Under the pieces are notes generated by a model that saw nothing but the letters and a program-made list of their open reading frames with translations, did not search any database and had not been told where the DNA came from. A DNA stretch of 52,408 nt, filler included, from Squatina squatina (lineage: Eukaryota): the NCBI GenBank assembly GCA_031763465.1. It is 2 parts of 2 records of this genome, joined end to end, with 100 filler letters (N's around TTAATTAATTAA, not from the genome) between each part and the next. Parts side by side here need not be neighbours in the genome. Positions count along the whole stretch, not along the records: positions 1 to 31,557 come from JARFOE010000004.1; 1 more part is not named here. One strand, given 5' to 3'. Positions 25,536 through 28,093 of the stretch are shown here, in pieces. The position numbers and the translations under genes were made by a program. How positions within the stretch are numbered: the first letter of the stretch is position 1; every line of letters begins with the position of its first letter.

Positions 25536-25664
25536 TCAGTAGGCACATGGTGGTTCTTCAACTGGAGCCATTGGACTCCTGGGAGTCAAGGTGCTCAGGG
25601 AGCGGAACGCAAAGCTCGACGGGTCGTACAAGTATCGTGGCGGGGGGCAGCTGCCGCTGATGCT
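25536..25664 (-). CDS. Terminal coding exon of an uncharacterised gene with a FAM53-like motif
   Basis: Strong acceptor ctttgtctttcccccctcag|AGC; CpG-rich; the phase-0 frame reads SISGSCPPPRYLYDPSSFAFRSLSTLTPRSPMAPVEEPPCAY*, compatible with the phase-0 donor at 27621. Confidence 0.7.
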   Translation of the reverse strand, partial: SISGSCPPPRYLYDPSSFAFRSLSTLTPRSPMAPVEEPPCAY

Positions 25665-26242
25665 CTGAGGGGGGAAAGACAAAGTGAAGACACTGTCAGC
25701 AATTCAGACCAAGGCACTGTTTGTTTGCAGAACCTAAGGGATTTGCATTCACATGACACCTTATCACATCCCAGGCAATGAATTACTTTGAAGTGCAGGT
25801 AGCTATGGGGGTAAACGTGGCAGCCATTTTGTACACATCAATTAAAGGAATCTATTTCTGGCTGTGATTCTCTTCCACAGTTCAACACTGAATACTTTTC
25901 GATCTGAACTATTTATACTGTTTTCACAAAGCAACATTTAGTTTCCTTCCTGTGTGTCCCTATATATTTTAAAACAAACACATTCTGGAAACAATGACAT
26001 GACTGCTCAGAGAAATCTTCAAGCAAGTTTTTGTTTCTTGATGAAACCAATTTTTTTTTTTAAATAAAGTGTCTATTTTCTTCTCTTTTTATCTCCTCTT
26101 ATTGAAACCCAACATTATCTAATCCTGGAAGGAGAAAAAAGNNNNNNNNNNNNNNNNNNNNNNNNNNNNNNNNNNNNNNNNNNNNNNNNNNNNNNNNNNN
26201 NNNNNNNNNNNNNNNNNNNNNNNNNNNNNNNNNNNNNNNNNT

Positions 26243-27038
26243 GGAAACTGCAGTGAGAGAGCCAGAGGATGAGGGAAAGGATGGGAGTGAGAGAACGGCA
26301 AAAAAGAAGAAACAAAGACTCTGAGAGAGATAGACAAGCATAAGACAGTGAGAGAGAGAGAGAGAGCAAGAAAGAGAAAAGAAAGAGACAAAGGAAGAGA
26401 AGGAGAGGGAGAACAAGACAGAGAACAAGAGAGATAGACGACGAGATAGGGAGAGAAACAAGATACACAGATCAATAGAGATAAAAATTCAGAAACAGAG
26501 CGAGTTCAACATTCAAAAGCAAGAGTTATCACAAGGCCCGATCTGTTTGAGCATTCACCAGCTACAAAGGAACTTTGAGAAGCTCCAAGAAAGCACTGAT
26601 TAGAATGAAAGATGATATCGAATAATGTTCAGCCGTGCAAAGCTGAAAAATCATGCGCCATCTGGCCAGTCACTGAATGTTTGTTCAAAGCTGCAAAGCA
26701 CGCCCGGTGAATTTTAGGTCATTAACCCACAGAGGTTTCTTTTGTTAACTCATTGTACTTTCCACACAGCTCTCCCATTTAGAAAGGGGGAAAGGAAGCT
26801 CATCACATCAGAGATTCAATTCCCGGGGTGAGAAAAGGAAATAATGTTCATCAAGGAAAGAGAGAGAAATGGGGAGAGAGACAAAAAAACATATCTTGTG
26901 TCTTGCAAGCCAGAGGACAGAGAGAGAGAGAGAGAGAAAGATTGAGGGAACTAGAGAGATTAGGCAACAGGAGAGAAAAGTGGGGAGAGAGAGAGGAAGG
27001 AGAAACTGCAGAGACAGCAAGAAAGTGGGCAGAGAGAG
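26243..27038 (+). repeat. Two purine-rich (GA/GAA) low-complexity tracts, about 26243-26480 and 26830-27038
   Basis: Runs of (ga)n and gaaa, each next to an assembly gap. Confidence 0.85.
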
Positions 27039-27620
27039 NNNNNNNNNNNNNNNNNNNNNNNNNNNNNNNNNNNNNNNNNNNNNNNNNNNNNNNNNNNNNN
27101 NNNNNNNNNNNNNNNNNNNNNNNNNNNNNNNNNNNNNNTGCTGTGCACAAACTGGCACCCACATTTCCTACATTTCAACAGTGACTACACTCATTAATTA
27201 ATTCATTGGCTGTAAAGTGTTTTGGGGAATCTTGAGGTGGTGAAAGGCACTATATAAATTCAAGTCTTTCTTTTACCTGCCTTTGGAAGCTGTACTAAAT
27301 TAGGTCTACCTGTCCTCAGGAGCTGTATACATTGGGCAATCCTGTCCTGAGGAGCTGGACTAAACTGAGTCTACCTAACCCGAGCAGTTCTTTTTCATTG
27401 GGCCTCATGAGCTATATATCACCCTGAGGGGCTGGAGCTTAGGAGTTGTTTCACATCGGGCCTACTTGGAATGCAGATCCTCAGAAGATCAGGTCACCAT
27501 ATAACAGGAGTCGCATTACATCAGGTCGACCTGTCCTCAGGGACTGTATTGTGATTTTTGTTTTAAACTTATGGAAGCACTATCCACTTAAGTTAGATTC
27601 ACAGTCAACTTTGCACCAAC

Positions 27621-28093
27621 CTGTTGCATTTTTTCCAAGTCCAGGCTTGGTCTGCTGAAGTCATCGCCTTGGCCCTGCCTGTGCCTTTTGCACGGGATCG
27701 CCTGATCAACAGAGGTGCCGACACTAGCTAGTATAATCTGTCCTGAGGGTCTTCGAACCAAGGGGTGCAGTCTCTTGGGAGGGGAGGCACTGAATGGCAC
27801 AGGGCTGCTGCGACTGTACTTATGCTCGGCCTGTTGTACGGGCTTGAAGGACATGCCGCACAAGTCTTTGACTTCTTCGTCACTAGAGGATGTGCTGTCG
27901 CTATAGCAACTGAGTCTGTTCACCTGAGACCACTTACGCTTCTCCCCTCCAAATTCTCTGTTGATGCGTTCCAATTCCTCCTCAGAGCTATCACAGTCCA
28001 GGGGGTCAAATATTGTCCGTACTTTGCAGAGGTTCTCCTGGTTTTGCAGATGCCTTATAGCCAATGGTGATAAGTGGCAATTCCTTTGACTTT
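27621..28093 (-). CDS. Large internal exon of the uncharacterised Ser/acidic-rich protein gene
   Basis: tttttcttaactcttcacag|AA...ATG CAA CAG|gttggt; 473 bp, phase 1/0, fully open: xSQRNCHLSPLAIRHLQNQENLCKVRTIFDPLDCDSSEEELE...CKRHRQGQGDDFSRPSLDLEKMQQ. Confidence 0.85.

Follow-up and report, generated by a model that had tools for sequence, protein, structure and literature searches.

A shark gene of the Drosophila Reph family and a candidate DYRK1-binding motif that it appears to share with FAM53 proteins

The gene located on the minus strand between positions 25536 and 28093 of a 52,408-nt stretch of Squatina squatina DNA (filler included; assembly GCA_031763465.1; this whole stretch is referred to below as the window) is, as judged from profile comparisons, a member of the family of Drosophila Reph, a protein for which the original publication saw no obvious homologues (PMC3353934; this and the other sources given here by PMC number are drawn on in part). 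The gene is annotated in other vertebrates, yet uncharacterised, and it is newly tied to fly Reph here. As for its function, we lean towards the view that the encoded protein would be a pseudosubstrate inhibitor of DYRK1 kinases, acting through a motif in common with the FAM53 proteins.

The main coding exon (27621-28093, minus strand; 473 nt) encodes residues ~50-207 of the full protein in a single open frame, with 157 codons following a 2-nt phase, and is bordered by a pyrimidine-rich AG acceptor and a GT donor. The terminal coding exon (25536-25664, minus strand) adds 42 aa and a stop codon; its acceptor has the strongest pyrimidine tract among the candidates listed. It is followed by the start of the 3' UTR (25381-25535, minus strand), which is ended by an N gap; the contigs that cover the terminal exon extend over this segment too. 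A basking-shark protein of about 265 aa (P0001) matches the main exon over its whole length with 92% identity (E 7.8e-85), and the terminal exon with 97.6% identity (residues 224-265). Four related-organism runs, of guessed RNA status, also gave contigs over both exons (27621-28095 for the main exon), and third codon positions take 17 of the 21 exon substitutions listed from these contigs. In addition, when the exon peptide was shuffled 200,000 times, the RPSLDLEKMQQ motif at the end of the main exon came up only once. These identities, the third-position substitutions and the shuffling result all argue against a chance open frame: the gene is real and has the two exons first described from the sequence alone, as borne out by frame, splice signals and identity. 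The clusters and patches then listed (DCDSSEEE, SDSTSSSDEE, EKRKW, PPKR, CKRHR and SRPSLDLEKMQQ) are likewise all present in the main exon, while the length then given, about 200 aa, is right for the two exons together (157 + 42 = 199 aa) but short of the full protein, at about 265 aa.

Orthologues carry 18 extra residues between the parts encoded by these two exons, and a 54-nt cassette exon is thus expected in the intron region 25665-27620 (minus strand). In contigs of two related-organism runs, positions 27621 and 25664 are joined with 54 other letters between them and with CT..AC ends, support for the junction being firm in one run (X2, side 169) and marginal in the other (X3, side 29). 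Neither this 18-aa cassette nor residues 1-49 of P0001 were found by tblastn or ungapped scans in the readable sequence of the window, a fragmented scaffold broken by 39 N gaps; the cassette probably sits in one of these gaps or is missing from the assembly. The direct join of the main to the terminal exon corresponds to annotated isoforms in carpet sharks (P0004, P0005). Of note, the cassette would directly lengthen a helix predicted at residues 200-212, after RPSLDLEKMQQ, so that its skipping could tune kinase binding. Two intronic segments (27140-27275 and 28185-28245) consist of high-copy repeats, with a contig depth in the thousands.

By sequence comparison, the shark gene is orthologous to si:dkey-16j16.4 of zebrafish and MGC86483 of Xenopus. 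Identity over the main exon goes from the 92% seen with basking shark to 67% with MGC86483 and 42% with si:dkey-16j16.4, and the window gene groups with sharks and rays (support 99/93) in a tree whose rows are deuterostomes only. This orthogroup carries no functional annotation, and a literature search with the two gene names found nothing. The sequence-only reading had put the gene forward as unrecognised; this did not stand, as it is already annotated under these names and as LOC genes, and is homologous to the genetically studied Reph of the fly. These annotated orthologues, together with the homology to Reph, go part of the way towards full-length orthology to a characterised gene, which that reading had itself set against its proposal.

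A profile search retrieved 377 representatives at E ≤ 0.001, 150 of which were listed. Named members come from lamprey, hemichordates, echinoderms, molluscs, amphioxus, Nematostella, Orbicella, a myriapod, a copepod and insects, one of the latter being labelled Reph, and the family spans animals from cnidarians to birds, Drosophila Reph included. Two proteins (P0207 and P0218) form a second lamprey-adjacent lineage, from either a paralogue or another jawless fish; in P0218 the motif is followed by a MAP65/ASE1 domain, perhaps through a gene-model fusion. In the ESM Atlas, the top three matches were unnamed animal clusters, TNT, SPIDR-N, Arkadia-N, S100PBP and C3orf70 all scored below 0.9, and the motif alone gave no usable match. 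Neither the family profile nor a 25-residue motif query gave a match at E ≤ 10 in a search of PDB sequences, covering chains of at least 20 aa.

The relationship to Reph is supported by searches in both directions. A profile built without insects gave D. melanogaster Reph 47.0 bits, versus at most 3.8 for 402 decoys, and an insect profile gave the window exon 43.2 bits, versus at most 6.6 for 147 decoys. The shark and fly proteins have seven motifs in a collinear arrangement (7/7 in both P0001 and P0458), and motif order is kept in 145/145 of the proteins with five motifs. A dipteran query led to a cluster with D. melanogaster Reph at 401 and 351 aa, which are also the lengths given by PMC3353934, and the D. 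sechellia representative contains the PRRRPSN stretch that the same paper describes as a nuclear localisation signal of fly Reph. The fly protein (CG3920, NP_722945.2 / NP_652052.1) thus has the seven motifs in the same order, ending with RPCLDFDKMQQ; in contrast to the shark protein, it is 351-401 aa long, with long low-complexity inserts, a degenerate KRKWS and no PVEE-type tail. Reph is the product of an essential gene and is a putative nuclear positive regulator of Eph, whose expression it promotes cell-autonomously; the part of that paper used here makes no link to a kinase (PMC3353934). Fly Reph scores just 24.0 bits (E 2.4) with a vertebrate-only profile, a marginal result that may be the reason why the relationship was overlooked. 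Among the openly accessible papers listed, the literature searches yielded neither a link between Reph and this vertebrate gene nor a definition of the RPxLD[FL]xKM motif, and some orthology database may already contain the link to Reph. It was also reported that the best fly match of unc4516, a spider appendage and joint marker, is reph, and that the spider has two such genes (PMC13353597).

The protein was expected from the first to be disordered, and AlphaFold2 agrees, with a mean pLDDT of 55, a pTM of 0.20 and five short helices (residues 2-11, 42-53, 87-97, 125-128 and 200-212); according to this model, it is probably a disordered chain along which short motifs are strung. In the order of the protein, and all on the minus strand, these begin with the acidic helix SSEEELERINREF (27951-27989; helix 87-97), followed by the basic-aromatic EKRKWS (27927-27944), a possible nuclear import signal that reads ENRKRS in fly Reph and whose KRKW is present in 203/295 proteins. 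SSDEEVKDL (27861-27887; SDEEV in 260/295) is acidic and likely contains CK2 sites, judging from the consensus. Next come PVPFSASPP (27777-27803; FxxSPP in 272/295), which includes a Ser-Pro site, and the basic patch PCKRHR (27678-27695), aligned in order with PRRRPSN of fly Reph. RPSLDLEKMQQ, the predicted DYRK1 pseudosubstrate and the piece that weakly matches FAM53, closes the main exon (27621-27653), and MAPVEE (25554-25571), a weak candidate for a PP2A-B56 motif of the LxxIxE type on a loose pattern, lies in the terminal exon.

RPxL[DN][FL]xKM occurs in 279/295 retrieved proteins, the acidic motif SSEEEL in 270/295 and its core SSE[ED]EL in 383/412, motif counts that are partly circular, as the queries contained the motif. 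Among 397 motif cores in 412 proteins, Arg is found at -3 in 395 and Pro at -2 in 394. The -1 residue varies (C in 182, S in 175, Y in 28, W in 6, H in 4 and F in 1), which argues against a required phosphosite at this position. Sharks and rays have DCDSSEEEL or DCESSEEEL in the acidic segment (27951-28000, minus strand), when most other members have His before SS (343/383); this change is specific to their lineage and adjoins the second contact predicted with the kinase. Readings of RPSLDLEKMQQ as a MAPK D-motif, a cyclin RxL or a PP1 RVxF motif were rejected by eye against the respective consensuses.

The C-terminal tail [LMI]xPVEE recurs from Nematostella to birds, but is absent from fly and beetle and often eroded in ray-finned fish. 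The loose PP2A-B56 pattern fits 95/157 C-termini versus a 2% background, and the strict one fits 29/157, the MAPVEE of the window not matching this strict form; the tail as a PP2A-B56 ligand is a weak lead only. A parallel between FAM53C and B56 was considered and dropped, as PPP2R5 is missing from the FAM53C AP-MS table of PMC13132546, where PPP2R2A is present; a literature search on this parallel found nothing. Many arthropod members (e.g., P0428, P0245 and P0259; 21/295 in all) end in an ELSVFCW-like tail instead of the PVEE tail.

Two published lines of evidence connect Reph and FAM53C to DYRK1 kinases. In the fly, affinity purification of Minibrain followed by mass spectrometry recovered Reph with 6|7 spectra versus 0|0|0 in the controls (FDR 1e-4), and an earlier DPiM hit is cited in that study (PMC11540318). 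The list is permissive, with about 358 genes passed on and Reph ranking 24th (PMC11540318), and the association could be indirect, through Wap/DCAF7. In vertebrates, FAM53C directly binds the kinase domain of DYRK1A (PMC10559228) and inhibits it, probably as an active-site competitor, while being itself phosphorylated by DYRK1A (PMC13132546). A 2026 review calls the FAM53C site on DYRK1A undefined (PMC13229842).

Direct binding of the shark protein to DYRK1, and the site where it would occur, are predicted from a structural model. The kinase domain of an invertebrate DYRK1 (L033, whose class was confirmed against the PDB) was modelled with residues 80-225 of the basking-shark orthologue, in which the motif and acidic helix are identical to those of the window; the prediction was made without use of the supplied alignments, and DYRK1 was the sole kinase modelled. 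The complex reached an ipSAE of 0.71 (0.71/0.71/0.72), as against 0.00 for the highest-scoring of three controls. The pass mark is reached by 51/78 solved versus 2/108 mismatched microbial pairs, and by 39/65 solved versus 2/126 mismatched eukaryotic pairs, a calibration made outside peptides and disordered chains, which are the partner type here. Agreement between runs covers at least 26% of the contacts, and the pLDDT of the partner is 40.

In this model, RPSLDLEKMQQ was chosen from the 146 residues offered and occupies the substrate cleft of DYRK1, with partner residues 195-207 resting on kinase residues 187-195 of the activation segment, on D156, E160 and S179, and on the G-loop. Predicted contacts link L198 to the catalytic D156 and to S193 (D287 and S324 in human DYRK1A, whose numbering is that of L033 plus 131), P196 to F195 and G232 (human F326 and G363), and K202 to Y190 (human Y321). 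A second stretch, partner residues 85-98 with the acidic helix, lies on kinase residues 117-133 and 167-170, in the C-lobe. Of the 35 kinase residues at the interface, 34 are the same in human DYRK1A. A complex of DYRK1A with a substrate peptide has been solved (PDB entry 2WO6), so that the passing score may reflect the model's memory of RPx substrates.

Taken together, these data would fit a mechanism in which a disordered protein of the Reph family binds class I DYRK kinases (DYRK1A/1B, or Minibrain in the fly) by inserting RPxLD[FL]xKM into the substrate cleft. DYRK1A prefers Arg at -2/-3 (PMC10600473), and the simplest register consequently has Leu at position 0, which makes the motif a candidate pseudosubstrate and accommodates the bulky residues seen at -1; this register is derived from contact pairs and residue counts, the contact list itself leaving it unfixed. 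Arg at -3 and Pro at -2 would thus be placed as in DYRK1A substrates, with a variable -1, the invariant Leu would replace the phospho-acceptor beside the catalytic Asp, and the KM that comes next would be packed against the activation loop. Some 110 residues upstream, the acidic SSEEELxxI helix would clamp a basic patch on the kinase C-lobe, a contact that CK2 phosphorylation could strengthen, and FAM53 proteins would employ the same motif on DYRK1. The principle would be that of pseudosubstrate inhibitors such as PKI, the inhibitor of PKA, with basic determinants, a non-phosphorylatable position 0 and a second docking element, although the kinase is different, the sequence is unrelated and inhibition by the shark protein is a prediction.

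The same motif could instead dock DYRK1 without inhibiting it, the protein being an adaptor or a substrate; phosphorylation would then fall on the RPS serine or on a nearby Ser-Pro, and the protein would act as a nuclear transcription co-regulator. A register with Arg at -2, Ser at 0 and Leu at +1 fits the tolerance of DYRK1A (PMC10600473) and is compatible with a contact list that does not settle the register; FAM53C is itself a substrate of DYRK1A (PMC13132546), Reph acts cell-autonomously in promoting Eph expression (PMC3353934), and the basic patches are conserved. However, 222 of the 397 motifs have no Ser at this position, which can be taken by the bulky Y, W, H or F, and it is the invariant Leu that touches the catalytic Asp in the model, so that we consider a substrate or adaptor role rather unlikely. 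It is improbable that the motif serves another partner altogether (another CMGC kinase, an importin, 14-3-3 or a phosphatase), with the co-purification with Minibrain being indirect and the model a recall of a substrate complex. Such a partner would be in line with the modelling of a single kinase, with the partner pLDDT of 40 and a mark calibrated outside disordered chains, with the large AP-MS list (PMC11540318), and with the five further conserved motifs that have no assigned partner. Yet two unrelated lines, Reph with Minibrain in the fly and FAM53C with DYRK1A, converge on DYRK1 (PMC11540318, PMC10559228), and the model, unprompted, picked the one motif common to both families. Pseudosubstrate inhibition of DYRK1 thus remains the reading that we prefer.

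How the shark protein relates to FAM53 itself can be approached through the Pfam family PF15242. The window exon has no Pfam match, and only 1 of 29 family members (P0032) matches PF15242, at 16.3 bits versus a gathering cut-off of 27 and solely over profile positions 283-304 of 304, i.e., the end of the profile; in a wider set, 8/78 members match weakly (best E 0.0017). In addition, FAM53C was reported to be vertebrate-restricted and absent from cnidarians and insects (PMC10559228), a range that does not fit a family found in Nematostella, Orbicella, insects, a myriapod and a copepod. With a score below the cut-off, the rest of the profile unmatched and a different species range, the shark protein does not appear to be a FAM53 member. 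It is nonetheless disordered like FAM53A/B/C, FAM53C especially, although shorter, and the weak match to the C-terminal end of the profile upholds the resemblance to FAM53 that the sequence-only reading had noted. Of the two origins then offered, independent use of a short linear motif fits these results better than a distant FAM53 relative. It is very improbable that the gene represents a true fourth paralogue of FAM53 that mammals have lost: the weak matches of the 8/78 members and the disordered, Ser/Pro-rich nature of both families could be cited in its favour, but the one match that was located stays under the cut-off and within the last 22 profile positions, the window exon matches nothing in Pfam, and the Reph family is present in both cnidarians and insects, where FAM53C is reported to be missing. 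What the Reph family and FAM53 appear to share is one motif, a view based on the weak Pfam match and on the FAM53 motif as given in the first reading.

From this, a wider scenario can be drawn, which we put forward as tentative and somewhat doubtful as a whole. RPxLD[FL]xKM would be a pan-animal pseudosubstrate inhibitor motif for DYRK1, and the Reph family its ancestral endogenous inhibitor, retained from sea anemones to birds; FAM53A/B/C would carry the same motif, by descent or convergence, and it would correspond to the FAM53C site on DYRK1A. Mammals would have lost Reph and would rely on FAM53, the combination of motif and acidic-helix clamp would give specificity, and the tail may add PP2A.

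Loss in mammals, which had been raised as a possibility from the start, is likely but not proven. No mammal-named row was present among all 116 matches of one search (restricted to lengths of 86-275 aa), nor among the 120 listed of 593 matches in another. Furthermore, of 21 unnamed vertebrate-like proteins on the tree, from which tuatara (one named row) was omitted as the core is absent, 18 group with frogs, squamates, crocodilians, birds or teleosts; of the other three, two belong with lampreys and one is placed next to sharks, leaving none at the mammal position. LINC01460 is a possible human remnant of the gene. Six names gave 0 matches in four supplements of a study of lost genes and lncRNAs, a result of little weight, as its lost-gene table has species for headings and possibly gives IDs only (PMC5577775).

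DYRK1A, a dosage-sensitive kinase, attracts drug development aimed at Down syndrome, neurodegeneration and beta-cell regeneration, and peptidomimetics of the FAM53C site were mentioned in a 2026 review as a possible new class of DYRK1A inhibitors (PMC13229842). With an 11-residue candidate motif and defined residues to mutate, the question is now reduced to an experiment with a peptide and a kinase. Fly Reph gains a vertebrate family, along with a biochemical hypothesis that is open to work in fly, zebrafish, Xenopus and chick, and the gene is also an example of a conserved animal gene with a possible loss in mammals.

Other loci in the window include a CpG-rich coding exon of SUPT7L (STAGA 65 gamma; 12988-13419, minus strand), which matches residues 3-139 of PDB 9rdk_D with an E of 7e-63. 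Segments at 14135-14272 and 21251-21321 (both plus strand) resemble middle and late exons of SLC4A1AP/kanadaptin, an identity for which no Pfam match was obtained among 78 chosen ORFs. The first of these lies ~700 nt from the SUPT7L exon, with an N gap between them, a spacing which suggests that the 5' part of SLC4A1AP is missing or misplaced in the scaffold. Finally, the region 35000-36000, on the upstream side of the Reph-family gene in the window, is CpG-richer (observed/expected 0.65) and contains GC-rich ORFs with no Pfam match; either a promoter or the remains of a transposon could account for it.
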